Shown here piece by piece: positions 3,111 through 36,420 of a DNA stretch of 37,986 nucleotides. This DNA is from Rhizaria sp. SCN 62-66. Its lineage: Eukaryota. The stretch is from assembly GCA_001724265.1 (NCBI GenBank), contig MEDY01000301.1, positions 1 through 37,986 on the forward strand, read 5' to 3'. Within the stretch, counting starts at the first letter, position 1. Every line of letters begins with the position of its first letter. A program made the translations under genes and the position numbers. The notes beneath the pieces were generated by a model, which searched no databases, was not told where the DNA came from, and was given only the letters and a program-made list of their open reading frames with translations.

Positions 3111-3148
<38 letters not shown>

Positions 3149-5582: not shown

Positions 5583-6653
5583 ATGTCCGCAGCCATGTTT
5601 CGCGCCACCGCGACCGGCGCCCTCCCGTCCAACGCCGCGTCCCTGAACAAGCCCGCCGGCGGCGCAGCGTGGAGTGTCGACTCAGTCATCTCGCGTCTGC
5701 TCTCGCTGCGCGGCCAGCGCCCCGGCAAGGAGCTTGCGCTCACCGACGAGGACCTGCGCCAGCTCTGCACGCGCGCGCGCGCCGTCTTCCTCTCGCAGCC
5801 CATGCTGCTGGAGCTTTCCGCGCCCGTCAAGGTCTCGGGGGACCTCCACGGCCAGTACTACGACCTCCTGCGTCTGTTTGAGTACGGCGGCTTTCCGCCC
5901 GACGCCAACTATCTCTTCCTGGGCGACTACGTTGACCGTGGAAAGCAGTCGATCGAAACCGTCTGCCTTCTGCTCGCCTACAAGATCAAGTACCCCGACA
6001 ACTTTTTCCTGCTGCGCGGCAACCACGAGTGCGCGAGCATCAACCGCATCTACGGGTTCCACGACGAGTGCCGCCGCCGCTACAACGTCAAGGTGTGGAA
6101 GATGTTCACCGACTGCTTCAACTGCATGCCCCTTGCGGCCCTGATCGAGGACCGCATCTTCTGCATCCACGGCGGCCTGTCGCCCGAGCTGCACAACATG
6201 CAGCAGATCCGCGCCATCCCGCGGCCCTGCGACATCCCCGACTCGGGGCTCGCCTGCGACCTGCTCTGGGCCGACCCCTCCAAGGAGGTGGACGGCTGGG
6301 GTGAGAGCGAGCGCGGCGTCTCCTTTACCTTCTCCGCCGCCGTTGTGGCGCGCTTTCTCGCCGCGCACGATCTCGACCTCGTTTGCCGCGCGCACCAGGT
6401 CGTGCAGGACGGATACGAGTTCTTTGCCAACCGCCGCCTGGTGACGATTTTCTCGGCGCCCAACTACTGCGGCGAATACGACAACGCGGCCGCGCTGCTC
6501 TCGGTCGACGAGAGCCTTGTGTGCTCCTTCCAGGTCCTCGAGCCCAAGGAGAAGCGCCTGCCTCCGCGCATCGGCGCCGGCATCAGTGCTGGCATGGGCG
6601 GCGGCGCACACGGCGGCTCACACGGTGGCGCGGCGGGCCGGTCCCCGATGTGA
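5583..6653 (+). CDS. PP1: Serine/threonine protein phosphatase 1 catalytic subunit (PPP family), 356 aa, intronless
   Basis: All PPP motifs are present: [47 protein letters not shown]1-type context: [30 protein letters not shown]. First ATG 5583; ends in TGA. Confidence 0.97.
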
Positions 6654-7007: not shown

Positions 7008-7080
7008 TTCTTTTTATTCGTTTTTTGTTTGTTTTTGTTTTTGTTTTTGTTTTTGTTTCTGTTGCTTGTTGTTGTCTTTT
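7008..7080 (+). repeat. (TTTTTG)n-type microsatellite / T-rich tract, probably in the PP1 3' region
   Basis: Directly visible tttttgtttttgtttttg run. The 6942 and 6974 ORFs (FLFLFL / FVFVFV) are artefacts of it. Confidence 0.8.
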
Positions 7081-8323
7081 GTTCCAATTTTCTTTTGTTG
7101 ATTGCTGCCTCGATTTCGCGTCATGTTTCTTGCTATCTTTTCATTGTTTGTTTGTTTCCTTGTCTCTTCTATTCTTGTTTTTCTCTCTCTATTCTCCTAC
7201 TAATACTCCTCATAATTATTATGACCACTGCACTGCTGAACTACTTTCGACAAGAGCAACAACAACAATAGCAACAACATTGGCAGCACATTAAGCACAA
7301 CAAACAATTTGTATCAGCATTTGTATCAGCAACAATACCAGCGTCGGCAATAACAACGCACGCTCATTGACACACACGCACAGTTTAGTAATCGTTCTCA
7401 CCGCTTACTCTTTTGTATTTGTTTACTTTTTATACTACTTAAGCTTATATCCTTCTCTCACATGACTAATAAGCTATCTATCAACTACATAAGCGAATGC
7501 ACTTTAGGCAAAGGCGTACTCATCTCAAGCACACAAATGACAACGACAGCAACGTCAGCCGACGATATCAACATAGTACAGCGAGCACACACCATGTTTG
7601 CAGCGACACTAGGTGCACAAGTGCACGTGTCCACGCAGGTGTGCCTGTGCGACTCTAGAGTCACTAATCGTCGCATCAGAACTGGTACTGTGTTGTTGAA
7701 GGTTGCGATGTGTTTAGTCTTTTGTTGTGTCGTGGCCAGGGGCACCGCTGTTGTATGTATCATCAACATTGCCTCTTCTGCATGATATTAGTCACATTCG
7801 CAGTCATTTCGTCTCTGTTGCTGCCAGTTGTAAGAGCAACAAAACGAATGCGAGCTAGGATTTTTCTTTTTCACTATTACCTCAATCAAACATCAAAATA
7901 TCACCCTTTTACTTTTCTTTAGGTTTTTTTCAGTTTGTTCTTATGCCTTAGTTTGGCTATTCGCTGTTTATTTCTCGAAATACATTTATCTTTACATCAT
8001 ATTCCCCATTTTTTAATGCTATCTCCAGTGTGTCCCTTGGTACGACGGCGACTCTGCGTCTGCTCGTAGTAAAAAAACGGCTCTCTCATGAGAACCATAT
8101 GCAGCAACCGCTATCGGCCGTCTTTTCATCAAATAGCACACGATCCAAATAATAACCGCATTATAGATATTACAATTTAAATAATAGCTCACAAATTTGC
8201 TGTACTCACCCCAGAATCCCCACAGCTTTCTTCTCCGTTAGACGCGTCTTGGTTTCCTCCTCGAGCGCTTCTTTCCCGTCCCACTTGCTTCCCGCCGCAC
8301 CTCCCGCGCGTCCTGCCGCGGCC

Positions 8324-15610: not shown

Positions 15611-17422
15611 TTACTGTGCACGGCGCTGCTTATCCTTCGCATCAGCAATCCACCTGGTTTGCAGTGCAATTTCCCGATCAAATGCCCGAGCCTTTTCCAT
15701 GCCACCTCCAGTGCGTGCCGCATCTGCTGCCAACGTAAACGACTCAACACTGACTTCCCGCCACTTCAACTCGCACTGCAGCAGCTCAGTCTCCGTTTGC
15801 GATCTCGCCTTAACAGCACCGAAGTCAAGTCGCCAGCTCGCCACATCATCCCAGAGCCCATCCCACTGACCGCCGCACTCCAGTAACTGTGGTTGTGAGA
15901 GTTTTCTCCACGTGAGAGCGCACACGGCGGCCGCGTGCGCCGCGAAGGCCCCCCGGAGTCCGTGCACGTCCACCGTGAGCCACTCGCCCTTGGGCGGCGC
16001 GGGGAGCGCGGTCAGCAGCGCCAGCCCCCGCAGCAGCAGCGCCGCGGCGGGGGCGCCGAGGCGGGCCACGGCGAGCGCCAGGGACGGGTAGAACACGCGG
16101 CCAGGGGCAACCGTAGGGACCGCATCAGTTCCTTGCGCTGTGAACGTGAAGGGCCAAACGGCGTAGCATGAGTCTTGCGAAGACTCAGTCGGGCTAGGAG
16201 AGTCTTCTTCGACCGAGACGCTGTTGTCGCTCTCACCAGCTGTCCCAGCAAGCGTGTCTGCCTCTGCGAGCGTCAGCCGCGCCCGCACTAGTGAGCTATC
16301 GTGGGCGATTCCAAGAGCGTCGCCCGTGCCTAAGCTGTCCACGACGAGATTATACAGAAATGCAGTTTTATCACCGACTTTGCAGGACTTAGGCGAAGTG
16401 AAGAGCGATGAAGAGGTGAAAAGCGAGTCGACAGCATCCAGAATGAGATAGTGCCCGGCGTGCAGGGCACTATCTAACTCATCCACAGGAGCATTTCCGT
16501 CGTTGCAAGAGTTGACGCCGCCTGACAGTGCCGCGTCGGCCATGGCTGCCGCGATGAGCTCGCTGAGGCCAGCGTCGGCATTTGCAGCGGCTGCTAACTT
16601 ATCAGCGGTAGCATCTCCTGACTTTGTAAGCGGATAAGGAATAGGCATGGCTGCGTAAGGGTGGTACTCAAGCCCTCCGATGCTTACACTATGCTTGGTC
16701 ACAGCATTTGCTTGCTTTCTCTTGAGAGAGAACCAGTCAGGGCTCAGACTCGACGCTGCGCTTCCTGACTGAGTGCCGTCGTCTAAGTGCTTCCTGGCGA
16801 GGTACTTAGTCAGCGCGGCGACCCTTACCCGAGGCGCCAACAGCTCCCAGAGCGCCTCGGTGTGGGCCTTGGCCGCAATCTCAGGGGGGGACAACAGCTG
16901 ACTGCGAGCAATCTGCTGCTTCTGTGGCTCCTGCTTGTGATGTTGCGAAGGCACAAGGACAACTCCGAGGCCAGGCAAAGAGACTGAGCCTCGGGGCAGT
17001 GATGACAGCAACAGCGACTGCGACTGTGCACTGGATGGGAAAAACGGCTGTTTGAACACCTTGTAGCAGCGCCAGTCGTGGGTGAGCGCGAGCCTCGTCG
17101 GCCCCAGCGCCGCTGCCAGCGCGGAGTAGGGCGGCGTCGCCACCAGCGCCGCGGCGGCGGCCGGGGACAGCGGCGCCGAGTCAACGCCACTGTCGCTGTT
17201 GCCGTTGCAGTTGCTGTTCTAGGAGGGCGCCATCGGGGCAATAAGGCCGCAGTCCGATAGGTTCGCGTTTTCAGCGACACAGACTGGGCAGATATGCATA
17301 CGCACTAAGTCAGGCGCGCAGCAGCGGGCGCAGCGGCAGCGAAAGCCGTAGGTTTCGCAGAGACGGATCTGGCGCTCGGACCAGGGCGAGAACGTCACGC
17401 CCTTGTAGCGAATACTCACGTC
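15611..17422 (-). CDS. SMYD-like SET protein, exon 2: SET C-terminus and post-SET, in-frame TAG at 17219-17221, then a further 535 codons to TAA
   Basis: DVSIRY...ERQIRL..TYGFRCRCARC is the SET C-terminus plus post-SET. The track ORFs 17219..17419 and 15611..17143 share one frame, separated only by a TAG. The downstream part has WRC and LHAGHYLIL, reminiscent of SMYD C-terminal regions. Confidence 0.7.
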
Positions 17423-17537
17423 CTAAGAGGAGAAACAAAATTGAAAACAAAACATCGAAGGAATAATGAGAAAAAACAACATTTTAGGGAGACGCGGCTT
17501 TCATAATTGCTGATTCAAGTCAAATCGTAGAGCGTAC
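17423..17537 (-). other. Spliceosomal intron, 115 nt, phase 0
   Basis: Minus-strand donor CAG|GTACGC at 17537 and acceptor ttttgtttctcctcttAG|GAC at 17423. The interior is AT-rich. Splicing restores the SET motif AIKEGQ-DVSIRY. Confidence 0.9.
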
Positions 17538-19760
17538 CTGTCCTTCTTTGATCGCGCTGGCCGCCATGACGGCCACTGTAGCCAGTGGGCAGAGGCGCTC
17601 GACAACGCGGCCCAGCGCCACATCCGACCACAATCGCACATTCTGTGCACTGTGCGCGCTGGGAGTGACCGTGGGCACCGTGCGAGTGACCGTGGGCAGG
17701 GTGACTGTGCGCGCGTCGCAGACGGGGGCGCACGAGTGCTCCAGCATCGCGATGCGCGGCATGACGGCGTCGCCGGGCAACGGCAGCAGCCGCCACTGCG
17801 CCTCTTCATTGCCGTCGGTGCCACTGCCACTGCCACTGCCATTGCCACCGCTGTCAGCGTGCTGTTGCAGCTGTTGCTGTGAGGGCGGTGCGATGCGGAG
17901 GCGCAGAGTGTATCCCTGACTGCGCATGTACCGAATTGCTCGCTCACAGTCGCTTGCAAGCTCGGTGCCACGATGGCCCTCCGCATCACTGTCAGATCCA
18001 GAGTCGTTATCTTCGTCCTCATCATCGTCTTCACAGCCGTCATCGCTGTCACGCACACGCGAGCTGTTGCTTGGATCGTTCTTGAGAGCGTTCTTGAGAG
18101 CGTCAGAGATAAAAGGGAATTCCGACGCCACCGTGGACAGGCCCAGCGGCACCGTGTGCCATTGCAACCCTTGCTCACGGTCACTCAACCGCTGCTCACG
18201 GTCACTCAGCCGCTGCTCGCGCTCGCTGAAAGGCGCCCACGCGGCCTGGTAGGGCGCCAGCAGCGCGGTGGCGAGGGGCGCGCTGAGCGTGTTGGTATCG
18301 GCCACGGTGCAGAGCACGGCCAGCGCAGCCGCCAGCGTGACCGGCGCCGACGCCAGCGCAGGTGCTGGGAGGGCGCCGCCAGGCCCACACGTCGGCTGGG
18401 CGGTCGCCGCCAGCGCGGCTGCGAGCGCTTCCGCGGCCCCCGCGGCCGCAGCCGCGGCCGCGGTCGCGGGCAGCGCGCCGACGGCGGTGCGCGCCACCGA
18501 GACGTAGGCGCGGCGCGCGCGCGCGGACTGGGGCGATGGGTCCGCGGCCAGTCGCAGCGCGCTCCACGGGCTCGGCAGCCGCACGGGCTTCACAGCAATC
18601 GCGGTCGCAGTCGTTGTTGTTGTTGTTGTTGTTGTCGCAGACCCAGTCGCTGCCGCAGTTGCCGATGTGTTTGTGACCGCGTCTGTGCATGGACTAGTGG
18701 CATTGGGGGCGCTCGCACAGACTCTATCCGAGTAAGTGGGTTGCGGGTACGGGGGCAGCGTGTAAGGGTGCGGCTTAACAAACATATCCTCGGGACTCGT
18801 GCTCGTGGGGTCGTATTCCGCGCAACTCCAGTCACGCCGCAGCTGCTCTAACGCGCTCGCGCTCACAGTATTGCAACTGGCACCAGTCTCAGGCTCGCCA
18901 GCCGTGCTTTGCGACTTGCTACCCGGCTTGTTGTGGTCCGTCTTGTTGCTCTCCGGCTTGTTGTCAGGCTTGTTGTTGTCAGGCTTGTTGTGCGTCACGA
19001 ACGCGTGCACGTTGGCCGCAAGCAGCGCGCCGCCCATCATGTGCGCGTAACCCGGGTCCACGAGCAGCAGCGCCGCCTGCCGCAGCGCCGCCGCGGCCGC
19101 AGGCAGCACCGGTAGCAGCAGCGGCAGCACGGGCAGACAGGGAGCCAGCGCCCAGAGGGGCGAGACGGCGGCCGAGGGGCGGTACTGAGCGCGCTGCGAC
19201 GCCGACAGCGGCTGCACCGCCGCGCCGCCGCCCACGGTCACCCGGCCGCACTGCTGAGGCTGATACTGCTGCTGGGACTGAGTGTCGTCACAGGGCGCCA
19301 TGAGAGTTGCGGTGAGATAGCGGTGCATGGGGATGTCGACGACGTGGACGCGGCGGCACTGCGGGTGAGGACATAGGAAGCTCAGCAACAGGAAGTTCTG
19401 CGCAAAGGGCGGCTCGCTGCCCAGCGGCGCGTCAGCGCGACGACTGTTACGGCTCTGAGGCGGCCCTTGCTGCTGCTGCTGGCCTTGTTTTGAGGACGTG
19501 GAGGAAGCGGTAGCAGTGGTGCTGGCGTTGTCCAGAGCGGGCGATTTGAGCATGTAGTCGTATTCAGCAAGCTCTGCCGCGGGGATCTCAGCGGCGCAAA
19601 AAAGCGTGTAGAGCTGCGCGAGGTCGGGGGGCATGTCGAGTGGCAGCACCGAGGCGGCGAGCGGCCAGTCGGCGATGACAAGCTCGCCGGGCGCGAGCGC
19701 CGCGGTCGCCACGCCGAAGCGCCCCTTGAGCGCGCTCGAGTGTAGCGCAACGGGCGGCAT
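17538..19760 (-). CDS. SMYD-like SET-domain lysine methyltransferase, exon 1 (741 aa)
   Basis: N-terminal SET half KGRFGVATAALAPGELVIADWP. C-terminal half MPRIAMLEHSCAP...VMAASAIKEGQ. A long insert lies between them, as in split-SET (SMYD-type) proteins. First ATG 19760. Confidence 0.85.
18172..18228 (-). repeat. 21-bp coding tandem repeat, about 2.7 copies (SEREQRL/SDREQRL/SDREQ)
   Basis: tgctcacggtcactcaaccgc / tgctcacggtcactcagccgc / tgctcgcgctcgctg on the + strand. Confidence 0.85.
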
Positions 19761-20763
19761 CACCGGTGTGGGGCAAGCGCGGGCGCGCGGAAGCGGGGCG
19801 GCGGCGAGAGAGCTGAGGACGAGCGCGCAGGGCGATGCAAAGGGGGCGCTGAGGATAAGGCCAGTGATAAGGCGCTGAGAAGGCAGAAACGTAGTGCGTG
19901 TGAGCTAAAACTTCCGTTAAATAACACAGGGTTCGAATATAATATACAAAAATCTTTTAATTACTATTAGTCTTAACCACAGGTGCATGATAGCTACAGA
20001 CTCTGAGATACCCATAAACAATATGACCGCTCCAGTCTGACGCTGGCCTAGGCCCACCGTCCACGGAGTCGCACACCGCGCGTCGTGGAGCTCACTTGTA
20101 GCGGCTATAGAGCGCGTTTGCGTCCGACGAGTCGTTATTGTCCTAGCGGTTAATATTCACCACGTACTTTTCCACATGCTCACAAAACAAATTTTGAGTT
20201 TATGAACACCGGCTGCGTTGTCGCCAGCTTCTTATTGGTCGCTGTGCATTGTTGCTCGCTCGGATATGATAACCCTTGTCTATTCCTCATTTTCCTCTGC
20301 TGCCTCTCGTCTTGTTACGGTAGCGCACGCATAGAACATAATTTTCAAGCATATCTAGCGTATTCTTGCATAATATTCTTGCTCAGTGCTCACTTGCCTT
20401 TCCCCGACGCTCGCCCCACCGCCTCCTCCGCCCCCCTTTCTGCCCGGCCCTCGTTGCAGTCTTTCGCAGAGACTCGACCACCCGACTCTCTTGCCCAGCA
20501 CTTTTTCAGCGCGCTGCGCCTAACACACGCGTCTTTGGAAAACCTTTCCGTCCTTCAAAAGGCGTTATCGCGCTTTTCCTTCGCGCACCCGGCGCTTTCT
20601 CCCTCCCTCTACTCGACCTGGGCGTCGCTAGTTCTTTCCTGTCCTTTTCGCGCCGCAGCTTTGCCGCGCCGTCCCGGTCCCCCGCGTTCCCCCGCCGCCC
20701 GCCCGCCCGCCCGCGCCCCGCGCCCGCCCGCGCGCGCCGAGCCCCGCCGCCCCGCCGCGCGCC
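19761..20763. promoter_or_regulatory. Divergent intergenic region between the SET and PDE genes
   Basis: Head-to-head starts, an AT-rich core near 19910-19990, and pyrimidine-rich leaders on each gene's sense strand. Confidence 0.5.
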
Positions 20764-22155
20764 ATGCCCATCGCCGTGGCCGTGCTAGGATACGCGCTCA
20801 GCTTCGTGCTGGGATATGCCGTGCTCGCGCGTGTGAGCGCCAAGCTCCAGCAGCACCAGGCTCGCCAGCAGCAGCTCGCTCTGCAGCTCGCACAAGAGCA
20901 GCAGCTAGAGCAGCAGCAAGCGCAAGAACAGCAGCAGCAGCAGCAACAGCAGACAACGCGGCGCCGCGGCAAAGGCTCCGCTCGCTCTCCAGCCAGTGCA
21001 CCTGCTGCTGCAACTCAGGCACAGGCTCAGGTACAGCGACAGCTACAGCTGCAGCTGCAGCCGCAGTCGCTGTTTGCCCGCTTGGTGACGCTGCTCGCCG
21101 ACGCGCTCTCTCTGCTGGCGCCGCCGCCGCCGCCGCCGCCCGTGGTCCCAGTCCCTGTCCCAGTCCCTGCCCTTCCGGTCACTGCGCCGGTCACTGCGCC
21201 TGCGGCGGCGGCGACTGCTGGGAGCTCCCAGTTGCAGTCGCCGTCGCAGCCTGAGGCTAACCCCGAGGCTAAGCTCGAGGCTAAGCCCGAGGCTCCGGCT
21301 CCGGCTAACGAGCCTGATGCTAAGTTTGAGCCAGAGCCCGAGTCAAGGCCGGAGCCTGAGTCAAAGGCTGAGCATAATGCGCCCAAGTCTTCAGCAGAGC
21401 CCAAGACTGATGCTGATGCTGAGGCTAAGGCTGACGCTAGGCCTAAGCCCCAACCCCAACCCGAGGCCCATGAGGCTGCTGAGCCCAAGTCATCTGAGAC
21501 TCAGTCGAGCACTGCCCCCTCTGTTGCTGCGATATCTGTTGCCAGCAACAACAGCAACGGCGGCAGCGACACCGGCCTCCCTGTCGCCGCTGACCCTGCC
21601 GCCGCGCCCGCTCCTGCGGCTGCCGATGCGTCCTCCAGCCCGGCTCCGTTTCTCGGCCCGGCCCCGTTTGTCGGCCCGGCCGCGCCCCCCTCAGGTCCCG
21701 GCTCGCTGCCGCTGTCACTGCAGTCCGCCGCCGCCGCCGCGGGGCTCGGCGCGCTCTTGCTGGCCTCCGAGCTGGACCTCTCCTCGGCCTCGGGCTCTGG
21801 CTCCGCGTGCGACTTCGCGGCCGACTCGCCCGTGATCCCCGCTCACGCCGACGCCGACGCCGACACTGCCGCCGACGCCGTTGCCGTTGCGGGTGCCTCC
21901 GTCGCGCTCGCCAACAGCGCTGCGGCCACTGAGACGGTCGCCGTGGCCGCGATCGGCGCCGCAAGCGCCGCCGTAACCACCAGTACGCGTGACGGTGCAC
22001 GTGACGGTACACATGAGGACAAGCCGCTGCAGCTGCACCTCTCGCCGTCACAGTACCAGCAGCATTTGCAGCAACAGCAGCTCGAGCAGCAGAGCAGACC
22101 CGCCGCTCCCAGTCACCAAAGCATTCGCACAGCAAGCGCAAGCACGGTCTCTAGC

Positions 22156-22196
<41 letters not shown>

Positions 22197-23776
22197 TAGT
22201 TCTAGCGCTAGCACCGGCACGGGCAGCGCCCGTGGCAGCTTCAGCGGCAGCGGCGGCAGCGGGCCGCCCAGGACCCCCACCTTCAAGCCCAATGGCAACG
22301 GCAGCGCCGGCTTTGGCAGCAGCACAAACATCAACATCAACTGCACCAGCAGCAGTGCTAGCGCGGTGGCCGCTGGCCCGATGGCTGCGCTGCGCCCGCG
22401 TATGACCCCGGCCTCCACGCCGACAGCGGCCTCGCTCGCCGCTGCGGCGGCCGCGGTGGCGGCGGCGGCGGGCTTCGGCGGCAGCGGCCCCGCCAACACT
22501 TACTGCGGCAGCGGCAACAGCTACAACAACAACGCCGGTCTCAGCAGCAGCGCGCACAGCCGCAGCGGGAGCGCGAGCGCCGCCGTCGGCGGCGCCGGCG
22601 GCGGCGCCGGCGGCATGGCCGTCGGGACTCTGAGCCGCAGCGGCAGCGTCGCCGTTGGAGGCCGCTCCCGCAACGTGGCGCAGATTCTGGACCCGGAGTC
22701 GTACGACAACATCGTCAACAACGTGGGCGCCGCCTGGGCGGACGAGTTGGCGCCGTTCAGGCTCGCCTACGACCCGTCGCCGCCCGCCGCCGCCGCCATC
22801 GCCGTCGCTGGCGCCGCCGCTAATAGCGCGGCCCACCAGCACTTGCAGCACGGCCACGGCCACGGCCACGGCCACGGCGGCGGCGTCAATAGCGACTCGC
22901 CGGGCCAGTCCCACCACAGGGCCAACAGCGGCAGCGGCAGCGCCAGCGGCAGCTTCGGCCCCCACAACAGCTCACACGTCCGCGGCGGCAGCGACGCCAG
23001 TCCTGCCTACGGCTTCGGCTACGGCTACACCTCCGGCAGCGCGGTGCGCGGGCGCGGACGCAGCCACAAGCCGTCTCAGGGCAGCAGCGGCGGCAGCGAC
23101 GCGGGCAGCGTCACCCGCGGTAGCGGCAGCGTGCACGGCAGCGGCAGCGGCAGCGGCGGCGGCGGTGGCGGTCACAGGGCCGGCAGACACGCCGCCGACA
23201 GCGGAAGCCGCGGCCGCAGCAGCACCGCGGCCGCCGAGAGCGTGCGCGCAGCAGCCAGCATGAGCTTCCGCGCGGCAATCACGGCGGCGGCCGCGGCGGC
23301 GACGGCGGCGGCGGCGGGCGCGGTCGCCTTCAGCCATAACCACGCGGGGCTCGGCGCCGGCGGCGGCAGCAGCAGCGCCAACAGGATCGGCCGCGCCTTT
23401 GCGTCCGCGCGCGCCGCCGCCGCCGCCGCGCCGGCCGACGCCGCGGGCATGGGCGCCCCGAACGGGAGCTCGAATGCGCGCGGCAGCAGAAGCACCAGCA
23501 GCAGCGGCAGCGGCAGCGGCAGCGGCGGCAGCGGCAGGACGAGCGCCGGCGTCCGCAACGCATTCGCCGCCAATCGCGCGAACATCAACAACAACAGTAA
23601 CAACGAGTCGTGCATGTTGGACGGCGGCTACTCCAGCCGTTCTTCGAGCCCCATCGACGCGCTGTCGCCGTTCCAGCTGGCGCACACGCCCATCACGGCG
23701 GGGGCTGGGCTAAGTACCGGGCTAAGTACCCCCTTAGCCGGCCCCAGCGCCCGCGCCGCCGCCCGCAGCACCTCTG

Positions 23777-23807
<31 letters not shown>

Positions 23808-26800
23808 CTTTGGCTCTGGCGCGAGCGCGGTCGGCCCCCGCGGCAGCGTCAGCGCCAGCGCCAGCGCCCGCGCCCGCGCCCGCGGCAGCGTCTCCGCGGC
23901 CAACAGCGCTGCCGCACCTCGCAGCGACAGCGAGGCCGCCGCGGCCACACCCGCGGGGCCGGGGCTGGCGCTGGCGCTGGCGCACGTGGAGCGGCAAGTG
24001 CACGGCCCCCCCGGGCTGCGGCTGGGGCTTGGCGCGGCGCCGCTGCGGCCCCGGCTGAGCGGCGGGCTCAAGCGCGGCAAGAGCATTGCCAACAACATGA
24101 ACGGGTACGCAACAGGCACTGCGAACGCCAACGCAAAGACTCACTCGAGTTCTGGCTCCGGCTCTGTGTCGGGCTCTGTGTCGGGCTCCGGCAGCGGGCT
24201 GGAGGCCAGCGACGGTAACGCCAGCGGCGGCGCCGGACTGAACCCGCGGCGCGCGCGCATTCGCCCCGGGGACGCGGCCATCGCCGCCGCGGCCACGGCG
24301 GGCGCGTCCGCCATCGTCGCTGCCGCCGCTGCCTGTGGCGCTGCGACCGCCGCCTGTGACGCCGCCGTCGCCGACGCCGTCGCTCGTGCGAGCGCAGACG
24401 CGACGAGTGGTGGCGCGGACGCCTTAGAGAGTGAAAGCCTCAAGACTAGCGGCACCGCTGCTGTTGACTCCAGGGATCTTGACTCCGCTCAGGATACCGA
24501 GCCTGCCCACGGCCACGCTGCCCACGGCCACCCTGCCCACGGCCACCCGCACCCGCCGATGGTGACCCTCCACGGCGGCGACAGACCGGGCCCTGCCCAC
24601 GGCCACCTGGCCCCGGGCCTCAGCCACAGCGGCGGCCACGCGGCCTACCGGGGGCGCGCGCACGCCCGCGGCGGCTACACTAACGCGCACGCGCACGCGC
24701 ACGCACTCGCACAGGGTCATGGCCGCGGGGCGGGGACTGCGCACTCGTTGTCGTCCTCGCAGTCGCAGTCCCGCTCGCGGTCGCGCTCACGGTCCCGCTC
24801 GCGGTCGCGCTCGCGCGGCCGGGCCACAGACGCGCCGCTCACGACCGACGGGCTTGCTGCGGGCTCGGGCGCCTGGGACAGTCTCGCCAGCCTGGCCCGC
24901 GGCGGCCCCGCGGACGACACGGACGCCGACACCGTTGCCACGAACGCAACCAACCACACGAGTAGCAGCAGCAAAGACGCTGCGGGCGCGTTGCTGTACA
25001 GCCCGCGCAGCGACTCCCTCGCCGGCGCCTTCGGTCCGGGCCCCGTCTCGGTCTCCGGCACTGACAACAGCAACAGCATCAGCAACAGCAACAACAGTAA
25101 CGGCGTCAACAGCATCAACAGCGTTAGTAACAGTAGTGCGAGCACTGCCGGCAGCACCGGGCTCGGCCCGAGCGCTCTCGGCCCGAGCGCTCTCGGCCCC
25201 AGCGCTCTGGGCCGCACCGCAAGCGGCCGCATGGCCGGCACGCTCACCGGCGTCGGCGCTGGCGCTGGCGCGGTGAGTGGAAGGACGCCACGGCACAGCA
25301 TCGCTGGCTCCAGCGACGTTTACGTCGGGCTGGGGGGCCCTCTCCCCGCAGCCCCCGGGCTCCCGGGGCAGCACACCGTCGACGTCAGCCACCTGTTCCG
25401 CGCCAACTCGAGCGACGCGGCCGCCGCGGGCGCCGAGGGCGCCGAGGACGCCGCTGCGACTGGGACGCCCGCGCTGACGCCGACGCCGACGCTGGGGCCA
25501 TATGCGACCCCGCGCCTGTTGCCGCTGGCGCAGGCGCAGGCGCAGGCGCAGGCGCAGGCGCAGGCGCAGGCGCAGGCGCAGGCACAGCAGCTGCTGCAGC
25601 ACCAGCAGCAGATGCACCAGTTCGTGTCGGCCGCCATCCACGGGCCCGCGGGTTCGTATCGCACGGACGGCGCGCTGCTGCAGCGCCAGCAGAAGGGTGC
25701 GCACCTCTTCTACTCTCAGCAGCAGCAACAACAGCAGCAGCAGTCAGCTCCGCAGGCTCCGCTTGCAGCCACGGCCATCACTGGTGTGGTAACCGGCACA
25801 GTCCGCGGCCCGCCGACCGCGACGCCCGCGAGCAGCGTCCGCACCTTCGGCAGCAGCAGCAGCAGCGGCGGCAGCAGCGGCGGCGTCAGCGGCGGCGGCC
25901 TCGCTCACGGGAGCATTCGCACCCCTCCGGCGCAGTCGCCGGACCTCACCGCAGTTTCCGCCGCCAGCAGCGCCGCGACCAATATCAATAACAGCGGCGG
26001 CCACACGAACCCCAAGACGCACGCCGGAGCGAACACAGTCGTCAACTTGGCCAGCAGTAGAGTCTTCAGCGGCTCCAACGGCGACTTGGCGGGCACGTTC
26101 GGCGACGGATACACCGGCGACGGCGACGACGGCGACGACTTCGTGCAGCACCACCCGCTCCTGGCGCACCCGGCTTCGCTGTCCCCCGCCACGGCCTTCC
26201 GCCCGCCGCTGCCCGCGCGCTCGCGGCCGCCCTCGCTGCCCGCCTCCGCCTCAGGCTCTCCGCGGCCCAGCGCGCGCGCTTCCCCGCGCCTCTCCCCGCG
26301 CCTCTCCCCGCGCCTGTCGCCGCGACCGTCGCCGCGGCCGTCGCCGCGGCCCAGCGCGCGCGCGTCGTCTCCGGGCCCGTCGCTGCACTCGCACCACCAG
26401 TCGCCGCATCAGTCGCCCCAGGCCTCGCCCCGCGCCTACGGCGCCCACGGCGCCCACAGCGGAGGCTTCGGGGGCCCCGGGAGCCACGCGGACCACGCGT
26501 CGCCGCGTCTGCGGCTGCGACCGTCGTCGGCGTCGCGCCTGGGGCTGCCGGGCGCGGTCCGCGTCTCGCCCATGCCCGCAAACGCCATCGCCACAGGGAG
26601 TCATGCGCCGCTTTTGCCGAGCACCGCCGTCGAGGCCGCTGCTGGGAACGGCGACGACTCGACTGCTGCTGCTGCTGCTGCTGGGACTGGTGACGCCACC
26701 GCTGCGCCGCCACCGCCACCGCTGCAGTCGCAGTCGCTGGTGCCGCTGACTGAGACCGAGACCGAGGTCGAGGACTCCGCGTTCGCACAGCAGCAGCAGC

Positions 26801-27242
26801 AGCAGCAGCAGCTGGTGCAGCCGCCCAGCTCAGAGTCTCTGCTGGACCAAACCTTCGACGCTGCTGCCGACGGCGGCGGCGATGACGGCCAGGCTCAGCA
26901 GCGGCCGCCGTCGCCGCGGACGGTGCAGCGACGGCAGCTCAAGGGCACCCCGTTCCCCTTTGCCGCCGAGGCCGGCGGGGGCAGCGATCTGACGCAGGCG
27001 CAGGCGCAGGCGCAGACTCGCGCACAGACGCAGGCCTACGCACTGCTGCTGCACAGCCTGCGCATCCGCGGCGCGCTCGCCGCCGCTGCCGCCGCCGCCG
27101 CTGCCGCCGCCGCCGTGGCCGCCGCCGCCGCCGCGCGCAGTGACGCCGGCTACAGCCACGGCCACGGCCAAGGCAGCGGCAGCAGCAGCAGCGGCCGCCG
27201 CCACCGCCACCGCTACGGCACCGACTCCGTCGCCGTCCCAGT

Positions 27243-27298
<56 letters not shown>

Positions 27299-30200
27299 AA
27301 GTCGACAGCACGGGCTCGCAGACCGGCTCGCAGACCGGCGGGTCGCGCCGCACGCGAACCGGTACGAGCACGGGGACGGGCGCGGGCAGCGGCAGCGGCA
27401 GCGGCAGCGGCAGCGAGCGCGGCGGCTCGCGGTCCTCGTCGCGCGCAGGCACTCTGGACTCCCGCACTGGCACGCCCGCGAGCACCTTCAGGCGCGGCCC
27501 GCAGCGAGAGCTTGAGCAGCAACAGCAGCTGGACACGCCGGCGTCGCAGGCGGACTCGCAGCAGACCCCCGAGCAGCTGCAGCGCGCGCTGCAGCAGTCG
27601 GTGTTCCAGCCCTCGCAGCCCCCGCAGCAGACCTCCGACGCCGCGGTCGACTCGCCCCGCGTCGCGTTCGCGCGCTACGATGCTATCAGCGGTAGCACCA
27701 GCAGCAGCAGCGGCGGCGGCGCCGGCGCCCTGGGTCTGGCCCGGATCGCTAGCACCAGCAGCACCAGCAGCTCGAGCAGCAGCGGCGCTGGCGCCGCCGG
27801 CTCCGTCGGCAGCAGTGCGCTCCGCACCAGCGCCAGCGCCAGCGCCGCCACCAGGGGCGCGCGCGCGGCCTGGGCCGACCAGCTCTCGCAGCTGCAGCTG
27901 CTGCAGCTGCAACAGCAGTACCAGCAGCACGCGCAGTCGCAGGCGCCGTCGCAGCTGCTGCAGTTTCAGTCGCAGTTGCAGCCGCCGCTAGACTCCGACA
28001 GCGGCCTCACGTCTTCCGCCGGCAGCTCCGGCGCCGGCAATGCTGGGGCGACGCTGTTCTACACTCCCCCGCCCTCGGCCGCTGCGTACGCCGCCGCCGC
28101 CGCCGCTGCCGCTGCCGCTGCCGCCGCGAACCCGAACCAGAGCCAGGGTCAAAGCCAGAGTCAGAGTCAGCAGCACACCGCCGCGGCCGGCGCGAGCGCC
28201 CACCGCTTGCAGTCGTACCCGTCGACTGGCTCCACTTCCTCCCAGACGTCGCCGGCGCAGCCGCCGCCGGCGCAGTCGCCGCTGGCGCCCCATAGCAGCC
28301 TCACCGGTCTGGCCGCAGCCGGCCCCACCGGCTCTGGCGCCGCTGGCGGCGGCTACGGGCTCGGTCTGCAGCGCGGCCTTGCCTCCGGCGCTGTCGCCGT
28401 CGTCGGCGGCCCCGGCCTCGGCGCTGCCCCGTGCGGCCTCACTGGCGTTGCCACGGGCGGCGGCCTCGCTAGCGCCGGGCTGAGCGCCGGCGTGGGCGTG
28501 CCTGCGGGTGCGGGGACGTCGCCGCCGCTGCGCCTGCGGTCTGTGTCCCCGCCCTCGACCGCCGCGCTCATCTCGGCCATGGGCGCGGCGGCCGCGGCGG
28601 GTGCGTTTAGATCCCCCAACGTGCAAGCGCCCGGCGGCAGCCTCGCGGTTGGCGCGGTGGCTATGTCTGTGCCCGGCGCGCCGCGGTCGCAGCCGGGCAG
28701 CTCGCGCACCAGCAACAGCTCGGCAGTCAACAGCATCAACATCAACAGCATCAGCAACAACAACGCACCTGCTGCGACTGAGCACGAGCGTCAGAGCGCC
28801 GCAGCCGCAGCCGCCGCCGCAGCCGCCGCCGCCGCCGCCGCGGAGACCGCGTCGCCGCTGCCGCTACCGTGGCTGCCGCCGTCGCCGTACCCGACGTTCG
28901 CGCCGCTGCTCTTCCCGCACCTGCGGCGAGTGCCCCTAGCGGCGCGCCTCAACGCCGCGCGCCAGTCGTCGCTGGGCTCGTCCTCGTCGCTGCTGGCGGC
29001 CTTTGTGCTGTCGGCACAGCGCGACGTCGTCACGCGCGCCTTTGTCCCGCTGCCGTTTCACACGCTCGCCGCGGCGGACCCCAACGCGCCGCTGCCGCCC
29101 ATGCCCGCGGCGGTGCCCGCTGCCGTCGCCACTACCGCGGGCTTCGCGTCCACGCTCTACGGCAACCACGGCTACGGCGGCTACACCAACTGCGGCGGCG
29201 GCGTGAACATGCCCAGCGGAGGATATGGCAACGGCCACAGCGGCTCTGCGCCGAACGTCCCCGGCGTCGGCAACGCGCAGTGCGACGGCACGTACATGCT
29301 TGACGCCTCGCTGTTGCCGCATGTTTCGTCCCCCGCGGCCTCCGTGGCGGCCGCTGCCGCGGCGCACGCCGCCGCCGCGCTGGCCGCCCCCGCTCCGCCC
29401 CACCACGGCGGCCACAGCGGCCACGGCGGCCACGCGCTCGGCGACGCGTTCGTGAGCGTGCCGATCTTGTCAGCGCCGGCGGGGTCCGCGCTGCACGCGC
29501 TGCCGCGGCCGCTATGGGGAACTATGGGCCGTTCGAGCAACCCGGCGCACGCGCCCGCGCCCGCGCTCATCGCGCCCCCACTGCCGCTGCAGTACGCGCT
29601 GCTCGCCACGCAGGCGGCCGCGCTGCTGCGTTCGCTGCCGCTCACGCCCGAGACGCCGCCGCTGACATCGGCCAACGACGTCTTCGGCGTCGTCACGACC
29701 GCGACCGAGGCCGGCGCCGTCGTGACTGTGGGCGCGCCAGGCGCCAACACTGCCTGCGGCGGGGCCGCGGGCGGCGGGGCCGCGGGCGGCGTGGCCGGCG
29801 GGAGCAGGACTGTGAGCGCGCTCTCGATCGTGCCGCTGCTGCATCCGTGCGTGGGCGGCGTCGACGCCGTGGCCGCGGCGGTCGACGCAGTGCTCGCGGC
29901 CACCGACGCCGCAGACGCTGCCGCAGCCGCCGCCGCCGCCGCCGCGGCCGCCAACGCCCACTCCGGCCTCGCGCTGGCCCCGGGCCACGGCACCGCGGGC
30001 GCGGAGCTGGCCGCGGCGACGGCGGCTGCGCACGGCCACGTGGCGCAGGCGGCGCAGGCGCGGGCCGCGGCTGTGGCCGGCGCGGCTGCGGCCGCTGCGC
30101 TCGTGTCGCCCACCAGCAACATGCACGTGTCCCAGCAGCTGCAACAGCAGCAGCTGCAGCAACAGCAGCAGCTGCGGCAGCGGATGCCGACGACGGCGAC

Positions 30201-33200
30201 CGGGACCGCGCCTTCGAGCGCGGCCGGCGCCGCCACCGTGGACAGGCTGGCACGAGTGGTGGGCGCCGGCAATCTGCACCCGCAGCAGCGTCTGCAGCAG
30301 CAGCAGCAGCAGCAGCTCCGCATGGCCTCGCCCGCGCCCGGCGGCGCTGTGGCTGCGACCCCGGTCGGCGAGGGCGCCGCCACCACGCGGTCCGGCATCC
30401 TGCGCACCTACACTGCATCCGCGCGCCTTACATCACCACCGCAGACACAGACACAGACACAGACACTGTTGCAGCCGCAGTTGCAGTCGCCGTTGCAGTC
30501 GCAGCAAGCGAGTGGCAGTGCCACAGCGCAGCCAGTCGCTAATCCCGCTGGCGCTGGCGATGATGCGAGCGAACAAGAGCAGCCGCAGGAGCAGCCCCGC
30601 GAGGCGCCGACGCAGTCGCTGCCGCCGACGGCGCGGCCGCTGCGCTCCCGGCATTCGCGCTCGCTGTCACTGCTCGCGCTGGATCTTGCGCCCGCCGCGG
30701 CCGTCTCGGCCTCGGGCTTCCTCGGCAGCGCCAGCGTTGGCGCCAGCGTCGGCGCGGTCGTCGACGCGCTGATGCCAGGCGCGCCCACTGCGCAGAGCCG
30801 CCGCGCCGCGCTCGACGCGCTTGCGACGGACTCGGCGACGCAGCCACTGCCACTGCCACTGCAGCAGCAGCAGCAGGTGCAGTCGCCGACTCAGGCGTCT
30901 TCCGCCGCTGCCGCCGCTGCCGCCGCTGCTGCTGCTGCTACTGCTGCTGTTGCTGCTGTTACTCCAGCGACGGTCGCAGAGGATGTCAGCGCCGCGAGCC
31001 CTGCGGCCAAGACGAACCGCAACTTTATCTGCGACGGCCTCACCGTATTGGTGGGCCCGACGCCCCCTGCGGCCTCCGCATCGCCCACTCGGCAACATCA
31101 GCACGACGACGACGAGAGCGTCATCAGCCTGCAAACGCCTGCTGCTGTCGCCGCGGCTGCAGAGGCTGCTGCTGCTGCTACTGCTGCTGCTGCGGAGAGC
31201 TCGGGCAGCATCATCACGCCCGCGAGCGCGACCGACACCGACGACGGCCGTGACACCCTCTCCCCCAAGTGGCCCACTGCGGCGCCGCACGGGGCCCACG
31301 CCTTGCAGCACGCCTCGCAGCGCGGCCCGCTGGACTACAGCGACGGGGAAAGCGACTCCAAGTCCGTCTCCGAGGCCGACTCCCGCCGCACCAGCGGCAG
31401 CGCGGCCGACGCCAGCCGCGTCGCGGCCGGCCTGCTCTCAGCAACGGCCACTGGCACGGGCACGGGCACGGCCTCGGGTGCGCCGAGTGCCGGTGTACAG
31501 AGCGCTTCGGCGCTGCTGGGCGCGGGCGTGGCGCCCGTTGTAGTTCAGCCGTATATCACCGCCTCCGCCGTCGTCGCCGCCGCCGCTGTTGCTGCCGCCT
31601 CATGCTCCGGCTCTGGCTCCGGCTCCGGCCTAGGCTCGGGCACGTCCAGCGCGTCCCACTCACGGCGCGCGACCGGGCTGCTGCACGTGGCCGGGCCGCT
31701 CCACGCAACGGCGCTGGCGCTGACCCACAGCGGCCACCGCACGGGCGTGGCCGCCGCGTCGGCGGGGTCGCTGTCGACGCCGTCGCTGACGCGGCGCCTG
31801 TCGAGCGGACTCTCGCCCACGCCCACGCCGTCGCACCCGCCGTCGTTGGCGCTGGCGCGGGCCCCCGTGGCCAGCGCCGTGCCGCCCTCGGCGCTCGACT
31901 CGCAGGCCAACTCGCCGTTGACGTCGCCGGCGCCCTCGCCCGTCCGCAGCTCTGGCACCAAGACGTACTTCCAGCCGTCTCCGTCTCAGCTGCAGGCGCA
32001 GGCGCAGGTGGACCTGCCCGTGCCGTCACTGCCTCCCGGCGCGCCGCTGCCCGGCGCCGCGCTCCCGGCCTCTGGTCAGAGCACCGGCCGGGATCCGCTG
32101 TGCGACACGCTGTCGAGCCCTGGCGAGTCCACCGCGGTCCTCGTCGTCGGCGAGGACGGCGCGTGCGCCGCTGCCGCTGCCGCTCCTGCCACGGCCGAGG
32201 CTGAGGCTAAGGCTGACACCGAGGCGGACGTTGAGACGAAGGTTGTGTCGCCCGGCTCGACTGGGACGCCGAAGGATACGACTGTGAAGTCAGCCAAGTC
32301 CAAGTCTAGTGCCAAGAATGGCGCCGCTGCGAACCTGCCCTCTCTGCCAGTGCCGTCTGTTGCCGTCGCCGCCGCCTCCGCCGCGGAGCCCGCGGTCGCC
32401 CTTGCTGCACTGACGGTCTCCACCTCGGCGGCCGCCCACGCCCACGGCAACGGCGGCGGCGCAACTTTCATCACCGCTGCGCACGACGACAAGACGGCCG
32501 CGACGGACGACTCCAAGGACAAAGACAAAGAGAATAGGAAGGACAAAGATCCCCTCTCGTCGCTGGGCAGCGTGCTGCAGTCGCCCGAGGTGGCCGCTGT
32601 GACCGCGGTCGACGCCGTCGCTGCTGCAGCCACCGTGGCCGCCGCCGCCGCCGCCGTGACGGCCGCCGTGGCCCCCGCAGCCGCCGCTGCCGCGTCCGCG
32701 TCGTCGACGGCCCTGGTGGCGCTGCCACCGGCGGTGCCGTTGGACGTCGACGCGCTGCTCTTCGCCGCCGCCACGAGCATCGACTTCGACGCCTTCCAGT
32801 TTCACGTCGCGTGCTTCGGAGCCCCGCTGACGGTGCTGTCGTTGCACCTGCTGCGCGTCCACGGCTTCCTCGCGCCCGCAGACGCCTACGCGCGCGCGCA
32901 GGCCGACGCCGCGGCGCGCGCCCAGGGCGGCGCGGCGCGCGTGCGCGGACCTGCCGACCAGGCCGTCGCCGCGGCCATGGCGGCCGGCTTCGGCGGCGGT
33001 TATGGACAGGGCGCGGCCGCGCAGTGGCTTGGGCTCACCGTCGCCGACAGCCGCGGCCACCACCATGGCCACCACGGCTACGGCCACGGCTACGGCCACG
33101 GCTACGGCCACGGCTACGGCCTCGGGTACGGCCGGCTGACCGACCGGTCTGGCGGCACGGGCGTGGGCGCTGGGGGTGTGGCCGACTTCGGCACTGCGCA

Positions 33201-35381
33201 TTGCCGTAGCACTGCGGCGTCGCTGGCGCACCCTTCGTACCCCTACTCCCAGCAGATCCTGCCGCGCGTTTCACTGACGGTCATCGAACCCGAGCCGGAG
33301 TACGAGCCCTCGTACTCGCCCGTCGGCGCCGTCGGTAGCAACGGCAGCAATAGCGTTAGCATCGACACGGCCAGCGTTGGCGACACCCCTCTGCAGCAGC
33401 AGCAGCAACAGCAAGGGGGCGCTTTGAGTGGCCCTGGCGCCGCCGACGTCCCCCCGCCGCCGCCGCCGCCGTTGCGCCCGCACCGGCCTCGGCCGGCGTG
33501 CGGGATGCCGTCTAAGTACATCGGCGGCGGCCCCTTAGACCCGGTCAAGGTGTCGCGCTTCTTCTCCGAGCTGGAGCCACTGTACCTGCCTCTGGCGTAC
33601 CACAACCAGCGGCACGCTGTCGACGTGCTCCAGCTCGCACACCTGCTCTTCACGTCGCCCGCGCTCGCGCTTTACGGCCGGCCCGTCCAGCTCTCGCAGC
33701 AGCGCGTGCCGCTGCTCATCACGCAGGAGAACAACAACTACAGCAACAACAATAACAACAACACTAGCAACAACAACAGCGGCAACGGCACTGGGAACAA
33801 CGACAACAACACCGCGCACGGTAGCGCTCACCCCGGCGGCCACGGCGCCGGCGCTCTCGGCAGCCCATCCGCCGCGCCGGCGACCGTCTCCGGCCTCTAC
33901 GTCTCGGTCTCGCAGGACTCGCAGTGCGCCTTCACGCCGCGCGGCCTCCCGCCGCACTGCACATGTCCGCGCGACCCGGGCTCGGAGTACCGCTACGGCG
34001 ACTACAACGCCGCGCGCGACGCCGCCGCGCTGGCAGCGCGCGAGGAGCCCGTCACGCGCGCCGCCGCCGCCGCGGCCGCCGCCAGGGCCAGCGCGGACGG
34101 ACTGGCGCTCGTGACCGGCGAGGACGAGGCCGAGGCCTGCGCTGCTGTCGGCGGCGCCGGCCTCGGCGGCGCTGCGGGCGCGGAGCAGGGCTACTACTTC
34201 GGCTACAGCGACAGCTACGGCTACGCGTCCGGCGTGCGCGGCAGCGACGCGGCGGCGGCGCAGGCGGCCGGGCTGTCTGCGCACCTGCCCCGCCCCACCG
34301 CGGGCTGCGGGCACGGCGCCCTGTTCGGCGCCATGAGTGGTGGCAGCAATTGCGTTGACGGGAGCGATCTCTCGCCGCGCGCTCCGTGCCCGATCCACGA
34401 CCTCGTCCCGCACGGCGGCCACGCGCACCCCCACGGCCATGGGCACGGCTACGGCCACGGCCACGGGCACGGCTCCGGCGGCCACAGCACCGGTAACGTT
34501 GCGACTGGCGGCGGCGCAAGTGTTGCGAGCGCCTCAAGCGTTGGCAGCGACTGCGGCGTCCCCGGGTACAACCTGTGGACGCCGCCGCCGCGGCACGTGT
34601 CGCCGTTCACCAAGGTGGAGCTGCTGGCGCTGATCATTGCGGCTGCGGGCCACGACGTGGGGCACCCGGGCACTAACAACTCGTTCCAGGTGCGCACGCA
34701 CTCGCCACTGGCGCTGATGTACTCGGACCAGAACGTGTTAGAGAGCGCGCACCTGGCGCTGCTCTTCGCGACCTTACGCCGCCCCGAGTGCGACTTCGTG
34801 CTCGCGCTCTCGGAGGGCGAGCGCCGCGCCATCCGTGAGCTCGTCATCGGGCTGGTGTTGGCGACCGACCTGGCCGACCACCGGCTGCACCTGCAGGCGC
34901 TCGACGCGCTGCTGACGGCGCCTGACGGCATTGACTTCACCTCGCCGCACCACCGGTTCCTGCTGCTCAAGCTCATCCTTAAGGCCGCCGACGTGGGCCA
35001 CCCGGTCCGGCCGCGGCCCGTGCACGTACAGTGGTCGCGCGTTATCGTCGACGAGTTCTTCGCCCAGGGCGACAAGGAGCGCGAACTGGGGCTGCCCATC
35101 GCGCCCAACATGGACCGCACGGCCTCCTCGGCCACCGCGCCCGACGGCCAGCTGGGCTTCATCTCGTTCCTGGTCAAGCCGCTGTTCGACATGCTGGCCG
35201 TGCCGCAGCTCAAGTCGAGCGCGCCCGGGTACGCCTCGGTCAAGCCGCCACTGCCGCCCGTGGGGCTGGTGTGCCTCACCGACGGCCGCGTGCTCGCGCC
35301 CATCAAGAAGCTCAAGGCCAGCAAGAGCGGCGGCGTAAGCGGCATCAGCGGCGTCAGCGACGTCAGCGGCGTCAGCGGCGT

Positions 35382-35420
<39 letters not shown>

Positions 35421-36300
35421 TAGCTCTGCGGCTGCTTCGAACACTGCCAACGTGGCCAACACTCCCAGCGGGAGCAACGACGCAGCTCCCGCCAGCGACG
35501 GCGGCGGCAGCGCCGCGGTCGCTGCCGCCGCGAAGCCCGCCGCGGCCCCGAGCAGCGGCGGGCTGTGGCGGCAGCTGGTGCAGCCCGCGTGGGACATCAA
35601 CCTTGAGTGCAATCTGCGCTACTGGCAGCGCGAGAAGCGGCTGCTGGAGGAGCGCAAGGCCGCCATCGAGGCGGCGGCGCGCGCGGCCGCGGCCGAGGCC
35701 GAGGCGATTGCGCGCGCGCACGCGTACGCGGACCACGCGGACGATGAGGAGACGGATCTCGACGGCGAAGACGAGGACGAGGACGGCTACGGCAGCAGCC
35801 GCGGGTACGACCACGAGTTCGGCAGCGAGTTTGACGGCGAATTCGACGGAGAGGGCGAGTTTGGCGAGGGCGACGGTGAGGACGAGTTTGACTACAGTGA
35901 CAGCCAAGACGAGGAGGATCGAGGTGAGCTCGATGTCGAGAATGACGAAGAAATCGACAAAGATGACGATAACGATGACGACGAGGCTGCTGCACTGAAC
36001 AAGGATAACGACGACGACGCAGTCCTCACCAAGAACAACGTGCAGCGCAGCGACGGAGCCCTCGACGTCGATGGCGGCGGCGACGGTAGTGAGGCCAGCG
36101 ACGCCAACAGCAGTGCTCATAACGACTACTCAGTGAGCGAAGGCGACGACTTGAAGCACTTCATCAACGCGAACGCGAGCCACAGCAGCCGTCGCCCGAG
36201 TGTGACTGCCGCTGCGACTGCCGCTGCAGCTGCAGCTGCGGCAGCGACCGCCGCCGCGGCTGCGGCCGCTGCCGGCAACAGAGGCCCGGGGGCGAGCTAG
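20764..36300 (+). CDS. Giant class I 3',5'-cyclic nucleotide phosphodiesterase, 5178 aa (5218 aa to the TAA at 36420 if TAG is decoded)
   Basis: YHNQRHAVDV (33598-33627), HDVGHPGTNN (34651-34680, PDEase I signature), ATDL, AADVGHP, EFFAQGDKERELGLP, QLGFI, NLRYW. Hydrophobic N-terminus and acidic tail. 15.5-kb stop-free frame from GCCATG. Confidence 0.93.
25528..25587 (+). repeat. (GCGCAG)10 coding hexanucleotide repeat, poly-(Ala-Gln)
   Basis: Directly visible; the last unit is GCACAG. Confidence 0.9.
27247..27294 (+). repeat. (GGC)16 coding microsatellite, poly-Gly
   Basis: Directly visible perfect run. Confidence 0.9.
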
Positions 36301-36420
36301 TCGGTGGTGATGGTGTACACGCGCAGTCGCAGAAACAGCAGGGCCAACGACAGCCGGAGCAACAGCCGCAACCGGAGTTGCAGTGACAGTGAGAAGGAAA
36401 GAGACGCCATGTCTCAGTAA

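Follow-up and report, generated by a model that had tools for sequence, protein, structure and literature searches.

Nuclear genetic codes that separate UAG from UAA have been described in a handful of lineages. In the rhizarian exLh (Sainouroidea), UAG is read as leucine (Leu), with UAA and UGA as stops. Its conserved blocks contain 192 in-frame UAGs, 82 of the 86 hyperconserved UAG positions correspond to Leu, and UAG is the commonest Leu codon in its proteasome genes (PMC5304391). The same report describes the fornicate Iotanema spirale, where UAG encodes glutamine (Gln) and accounts for about 8% of the Gln codons, again with UAA and UGA as stops. Among the phyllopharyngean ciliates, three TARA metagenome-assembled genomes (MAGs) use UAG as Leu, and Hartmannula sinica and Trochilia petrani use it as Gln; internal UAGs occur in 78-91% of the genes, the genomes have 27-54% GC, and the mechanism is a tRNA-Sup(CUA) (PMC11687900). 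As far as these reports go, exLh, Iotanema, one oligohymenophorean and a few phyllopharyngean ciliates are the nuclear codes that split UAG from UAA, and all of them use UAG widely. Here, we analyze a eukaryotic metagenome contig of 37,986 nucleotides (MEDY01000301.1; hereafter the window), which carries six genes (A to F) distributed over both strands. Two of them, genes E and F, each contain one in-frame TAG (TAG1 and TAG2, respectively), and a third in-frame TAG was found in a related organism, in a gene for a PP1-type phosphatase. Thus, two related organisms together have three in-frame TAGs in genes that are otherwise intact and coding-like, and one of these TAGs occupies a conserved Leu position.

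We regard it as likely that UAG is decoded as an amino acid in this organism, probably Leu, with UAA and UGA as its stops and UAG very rarely used. Leu is the leading candidate for the meaning of UAG, as suggested by one site. Most likely, we are dealing with a new lineage that has a known kind of code, a UAG-only reassignment, made unusual by a GC-rich genome and by the very low use of UAG. The organism is an uncultured, GC-rich, intron-poor microbial eukaryote; the coding DNA of the window has 60-77% GC and its spacers are AT-rich.

As in exLh, UAG would here be decoupled from UAA; it is inferred to mean Leu and was not seen as a terminator. In both, most genes stop at UAA and a minority at UGA (56 and 15 cases in exLh, 5 and 1 in the window). 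However, UAG is abundant in exLh, whereas in the window it accounts for 2 of about 10,517 codons, and its reading as Leu comes from a single site. With the phyllopharyngean ciliates, our organism shares a UAG-only reassignment, here a probable one, found in metagenome assemblies and a preference for UAA as the stop; in contrast to them, the window combines the GC-rich coding DNA mentioned above with an intron of 115 nt and with giant genes of low complexity, and two of its six genes have a UAG. The resemblance to Iotanema lies in UAG as sense with UAA and UGA as stops, UAG being a minor codon there; the difference is that the informative site here corresponds to Leu, not to Gln. Moreover, because the window genes hold 436 CAG codons, a UAG read as Gln at equilibrium would predict far more UAGs.

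In-frame TAGs in genes E and F

A preliminary description of this DNA had noted both TAGs, and re-reading bore out their codons and coordinates (Table 1). Their frames stay open for a further 535 codons after TAG1 and 39 codons after TAG2, each up to the TAA given in that description. No in-frame TAA or TGA occurs in the six genes. When open reading frames (ORFs) were delimited by TAA and TGA only, no further internal TAG appeared in real gene frames, and gene D (2380 codons) and the part of gene F before TAG2 (5178 codons) hold none. Three other TAGs, at 20629, 19907 and 17425, fall in two 5' leaders and on the last three bases of an intron. The six genes end in TAA (five) or TGA (one), and none of the eight gene ends available for the clade uses TAG (six in the window, the TAA of the PP1 gene on contig L002 and the TGA of that on contig L001, both introduced below); if TAG served 25% of gene ends, we estimate that such an outcome would have a chance of about 10%, in what is a small sample.

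Gene continuity was assessed by homology for gene E and for the PP1 gene of L002, and by codon statistics only for the stretch after TAG2. Gene E encodes a cysteine-rich protein without a Pfam match, which by eye we take to be SET/SMYD-like (FRCRCARC motif). In two large protein collections, one of them with 1.84 billion representatives, the only ortholog found was P0002, a continuous protein of 849 residues. Its alignment (E 1e-33) runs from SIRYKG..YGFRCRC..APDLVRMH before TAG1 through to TRLALTHDWRCYKVFK and beyond after it, and the C-terminus of gene E falls in a second alignment (E 5e-19); the two together extend from the end of exon 1 across exon 2, with the TAG site, to the C-terminus. 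Because P0002 matches both sides of TAG1 in a single alignment, gene E is one gene. In addition, the conserved block TRLALTHDWRCYKVFK begins at codon 41 after TAG1 and the first ATG comes at codon 191; since the conserved block precedes that ATG, the downstream part is not a separately initiated protein. Splicing out the one sure intron (17537-17423) restores AIKEGQ/DVSIRYKG (the slash marks the junction), which also matches P0002.

The TAG1 state is common to all seven contigs on record. The ORF calls P0003 (five contigs), P0001 and P0004 begin at the first possible start after TAG1, a GTG at codon 26, or further downstream, and no recorded ORF call for the gene E region (330-1052 residues) spans TAG1. 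As the ORF calls of several assemblies all start after it, TAG1 is not an error of a single assembly. Three of the first seven residues of P0001 differ from the window product (APPPEA against ATPPYS) and the other 503 are identical; the low-complexity linker near TAG1 (17130-17150) varies between assemblies. Further relatives of gene E were scarce. A metagenome scan with its alignment, in a collection without the contig of P0002 itself, returned none, the search for longer proteins and the PDB search returned none either, and a profile search of the 1.84 billion representatives added only three weak matches, all to the N-terminal cysteine-rich part.

The preliminary description had placed both TAGs within coding-style DNA, and a codon-usage log-likelihood model, trained on the window's own genes and compared with coding and non-coding segments, agrees in scoring both downstream stretches as in-frame coding. 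For the 39 codons that follow TAG2, the score is 19.4 bits (coding segments have a median of 24.4), a value that a single one of 766 non-coding segments attains; the 46 codons after TAG1 score 23.3 bits in frame. In contrast, the 39 codons after each of the six TAA or TGA ends score at most 1.4 bits in frame, and the AT-rich turn follows directly on the TAA of gene F. Under a stricter model that adds three antisense models, the TAG2 extension retains 6.0 bits, a value reached by 3.8% of the 766 non-coding segments, with 26% of 251 coding segments at or below it. The coding signal across the window TAGs is thus beyond chance, for what are two sites. When stops of any kind with coding signal on either side were sought, one marginal match came up, at 7949 in AT-rich intergenic DNA, which we judged to be noise after inspecting the sequence. 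TAG1 and TAG2 both fall below the strict two-sided cut-off of that scan, because one antisense frame has the same phase of GC at third codon positions (GC3).

The leucine position in a related PP1 gene

With the PP1-type phosphatase of gene C as a probe, the closest contigs were L001 (79% identity) and L002 (72%). L002 (3629 nt) has the genome style of the window, with a GC3 of 0.88, AT-richer spacers and T-rich leaders. Its PP1 gene is complete (2486-3466, stop TAA) and contains a single in-frame TAG (2657-2659, context TGC-TAG-CGC) in a conserved block of the PP1 core; the HSF-like neighbour gene on the same contig has none. P0017, a protein of 326 residues recorded on five contigs of up to 128 kb, differs from the L002 product only in having Leu where the L002 gene has TAG, the other 325 positions being identical. 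P0017 and four relatives show that this PP1 gene continues across its TAG. The TAG form itself is recorded twice, because P0131 (258 residues), a member of the P0017 cluster on a separate contig of 7160 nt, corresponds precisely to the ORF that opens with the first ATG behind the L002-type TAG. Upstream of the L002 gene there is a leader resembling those of genes D and F of the window.

At the column of this TAG, Leu is found in L001 (codon CTG), in five canonical PP1s and in P0134 and P0135, two sister sequences about 90% identical, from the cluster of P0017; the window PP1 has Thr, and the column is variable across the wider PPP family. Of the codons in the L002 gene that lie one step from TAG, 70 in number, only two encode Leu (TTG), so a random nonsense change or error would hit Leu about 3% of the time. 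The Leu codons of the gene are mostly CTC or CTG (27 of 31), two steps from TAG. The preliminary description had held that the amino acid could not be assigned. For the two window sites, which both lie in unconserved linkers, this stands, and it is the L002 site that now offers Leu as the leading candidate. Its broader claim, that UAG is a sense codon or systematically read through, is supported, short of proof, by the continuity with P0002, the coding extensions, the lack of a credible intron (discussed below) and this Leu site.

The PP1s of the window, L001, L002/P0017 and P0134 have seven residues in common that occur in none of 13 other PP1s. As these residues are derived, the four represent related lineages. 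As a control, the in-frame stops of every locus with a PP-family match (117 loci) were counted. Those outside intron gaps were mostly several TAA or TAG codons per locus, on AT-rich contigs, aligned to Gln (Q) or to glutamate or aspartate (E/D); ciliate codes with UAR as Gln and with UAR as Glu have been published. A single locus had TGA at a conserved Cys. Of the loci with more than 0.55 GC, L002 alone had a stop that aligned to a residue. Among six of the nine loci from the scan of genome contigs that were examined, none was GC-rich like the window, and scans of viral contigs returned no member of the clade.

Explanations for the in-frame TAGs

Several observations weigh against UAG as a sense codon. 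Its use is far below that of the published UAG-sense lineages, one of which has 204 in-frame UAGs in 126 genes, with UAG at about 8% of the Gln codons. In the window it is not widespread, being present in two of six genes, with 2 TAG against 76 TTG and 803 Leu codons in total. Only three sites are at hand (two in the window and one in L002), one of which is assignable to an amino acid, and the kinship between the two organisms is suggested by a single protein. For the L002 species, more records have the Leu allele than the TAG form (five contigs, against L002 and one other), and the two TAG-form records could share one sample. No tRNA genes were found in the window, L001 or L002, where Rfam gave no match. 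Both window TAGs sit where a stop would be least harmful, in a linker and within the last 40 of the 5218 codons of gene F, and this siting, like the rarity of UAG, fits tolerated nonsense mutations equally well. That TAG is the only stop found in frame does not discriminate either, because most one-step nonsense changes in GC3-rich genes yield TAG, its one-step precursors in the window genes being CAG (436), GAG (277) and TCG (282).

These same observations could be read under a standard code, with the TAGs as real nonsense alleles that recently truncated gene E, recently shortened a dispensable tail of gene F and produced a segregating or heterozygous null PP1 in the L002 species, in which a Leu allele does exist. 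We consider this unlikely, as three independent events in two organisms would be required, in some 11,000 codons that are free of TAA, TGA and frameshift lesions. A random change to TAG in the L002 gene would seldom have struck a Leu codon, and PP1 belongs to the core genes. Moreover, TAG1 is fixed in every contig on record, and the ORF that follows it is intact and conserved with P0002.

Programmed readthrough is known in several types, with the viral UAG-CARYYA context, with UGA-CUAG, or stimulated by RNA structure. Our genes resemble such cases in that the frame is kept, as a coding extension, beyond an in-frame stop. Under a standard code, near-cognate tRNAs might read through UAG in particular genes, in a programmed or leaky manner, and yield short and long isoforms of genes E and F; this would suit the position of the sites at domain boundaries, where two isoforms are conceivable, as well as the rarity of UAG, if only special sites tolerate it. 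Our genes differ from the known cases, however, in that the three sites lack both a consensus context and a common structure. The preliminary description had already placed TAG-AAC and TAG-TCG outside the CARYYA and CUAG motifs, and both contexts were confirmed; TAG-CGC of L002 fits neither motif, the three contexts differ from one another, and no shared downstream RNA structure was found (fold z = -1.95, -0.66 and +0.94 for TAG1, TAG2 and L002). In addition, termination at the L002 site, in the PP1 catalytic core, would mean that most of the product is a useless fragment of 57 residues, and near-cognate readthrough of UAG is not known to insert Leu. Readthrough is therefore, in our view, quite improbable. 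More remote still is editing of the mRNA, with UAG turned into a sense codon before translation, for example by adenosine-to-inosine (A-to-I) conversion to UGG, as occurs in the sexual stage of filamentous fungi. Editing would explain both the restriction to TAG and the intact downstream frames, but the product would be Trp and not the Leu of the L002 site, nothing points to editing here, nor is the genome style suggestive of a filamentous ascomycete, so that we give this explanation hardly any credence.

Splicing could account for TAG1 if an in-frame intron of 66 nt (17284-17219, - strand) ended with this codon; gene F would then truly stop at TAG2, and the TAG of L002 would be unrelated. We enumerated 576 GT/GC-AG candidate introns around TAG1 that remove the TAG in phase, and none bettered the alignment with P0002. 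The sole plausible candidate among them is this one, CCA/GTCTGT...CCCTCCTAG/AAC (slashes mark its borders). Its borders are acceptable, its acceptor, CCCTCCTAG/AAC, resembles the CTCTTAG/GAC of the sure intron, a possible branch point (CTTAT) lies 23 nt upstream, and by eye the spliced product CPNSNCNG shares the C-x4-C-x-G spacing of P0002 CPEPSCPG. However, the 21 codons of its body, directly before TAG1, look like coding sequence in frame, with 12.5 bits where coding segments have a median of 11.8 and 1.1% of 1538 non-coding segments reach this score, and its GC is 0.62, against 0.36 in the sure intron. Splicing lowers the P0002 alignment score from 323 to 313, and it is the unspliced CGLIAP that matches P0002 CPGFVAP. 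As this explanation also leaves the coding-like TAG2 extension and the L002 site unaccounted for, we consider it very unlikely. By eye, the TAG2 region holds no credible intron, since the only in-phase GT, 99 nt upstream, falls within a coding stretch for poly-Ala and the acceptor is rich in purines.

If UAG is indeed a sense codon, it would be decoded by a tRNA-Leu with a CUA anticodon, one anticodon change away from tRNA-Leu-CAA, and eRF1 would recognize UAG poorly. A tRNA-Leu(CUA) together with a weakened eRF1 is the mechanism proposed for the two published nuclear codes with UAG as Leu. Because UAG is so rare, with 2 occurrences against 76 of TTG, its decoding may be recent or inefficient, and selection may tolerate it only where partial termination is harmless, such as an inter-domain linker or a C-terminal tail. 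More tentatively, it is possible, although we would not call it probable, that the window belongs to a deep, unsampled GC-rich lineage recurring in wastewater and bioreactors whose capture of UAG for Leu is still early or ambiguous, with UAG decoded and no longer a terminator, yet about 40-fold rarer than TTG. A literature search found no report of such a GC-rich, low-UAG lineage.

Should this be the case, the organism would present a natural intermediate of stop-codon reassignment, as well as a third independent nuclear code with UAG as Leu, arising outside AT-rich genomes. A UAG that is decoded and nearly unused in a GC-rich lineage would show the first steps of reassignment and would bear on the debate between codon capture and an ambiguous intermediate. 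There would also be a practical consequence, as gene callers split or truncate the genes of such organisms, P0003 and P0131 being artefacts of this kind, and pipelines that build eukaryotic MAGs from wastewater would need a check of the code.

Layout of the window and side observations

The coordinates of the genes and of the features discussed above are collected in Table 1.

Table 1. Genes, in-frame TAGs and associated features of the window.
Feature	Positions	Strand	Details
TAG1	17221..17219	-	In a low-complexity linker of gene E, ..CGLIAPMAPS-TAG-NSNCNGNSD..; context TCC-TAG-AAC
TAG2	36298-36300	+	In gene F, 40 codons before TAA, ..GPGAS-TAG-SVVMVYTR..; context AGC-TAG-TCG
Open stretch downstream of TAG1	15614-17218	-	535 codons, homologous to the C-terminal two thirds of P0002
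TAG2 extension	36301-36420	+	39 coding-like codons, then TAA; GC1/2/3 (GC at codon positions 1, 2, 3) = 0.41/0.56/0.79
Sole sure spliceosomal intron	17423-17537	-	115 nt, GTACGC...CTCTTAG, GC 0.36
Gene A	1717-677	-	Stop TAA 677-679
Gene B	4914-2293	-	Stop TAA 2293-2295
Gene C	5583-6653	+	PP1-type phosphatase, query leading to L001 and L002; stop TGA 6651-6653
Gene D	8324-15466	+	Giant, 2380 codons, single-exon, low-complexity, no Pfam match; stop TAA 15464-15466
Gene E	15611-19760	-	Exon 1 19760-17538, intron 17537-17423, exon 2 17422-15611; stop TAA 15613..15611
Gene F	20764-36420	+	Giant, low-complexity, single-exon; 5218 codons including TAG2 and the extension; stop TAA 36418-36420

Gene F has an N-terminal hydrophobic segment and, near its C-terminus only, a cyclic-nucleotide phosphodiesterase domain (PDEase_I, PF00233; about 34606-35199). 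The nearest protein clusters of this domain are commonest in Bacillariophyta, which is a weak lead. By eye, gene B combines a rhodanese-like N-terminus and a methyltransferase-like C-terminus with long low-complexity inserts between them, its Pfam match being sub-threshold only. The GC3 of the window genes is 0.67-0.86, yet five of the six end in TAA; this preference looks unusual for so GC-rich a genome, and it may be linked to the status of UAG. Long pyrimidine-rich leaders adjoin the start codons of genes D (8220-8320) and F (20400-20760), and the spacer between genes C and D contains a T/G-rich microsatellite, (TTTTG)n-like, at 7010-7070. Part of the window is matched by 16 sequencing runs from bioreactors, wastewater and activated sludge, four of which contain at least half of the sampled words; two of the runs (X6 and X16) are polyA metatranscriptomes, and another (X8) is guessed to be RNA.

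The phosphatase searches also brought up other in-frame stops. An AT-rich eukaryotic PP1 (GC 0.40; L081:61-954), on a contig of 1092 nt that is assigned to a Sulfurimonas MAG, carries a single in-frame TGA in place of a conserved Cys, and looks like a case of UGA as Cys (a Euplotes-type code) and of eukaryotic contamination in a bacterial bin. Similarly, ciliate-like AT-rich PP1s with TAA and TAG at Q positions (L086:10001-10992) or at E/D positions (L083 and L087) lie within records filed as bacterial (a 'Tagaea sp.' chromosome and a 'Desulfosporosinus sp.' MAG), and we take them as contamination or chimeric assembly involving ciliate codes. Finally, calcineurin-like phosphatases on three contigs of intermediate GC, L072 (176-1000), L075 and L076, carry single in-frame TAGs. 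The TAG of L072 stands where L075 has Q (RGHQV-TAG-VDGF) and that of L075 and L076 where L072 has E (NRF-TAG-EIPLDG), and these may be further organisms with variant codes.

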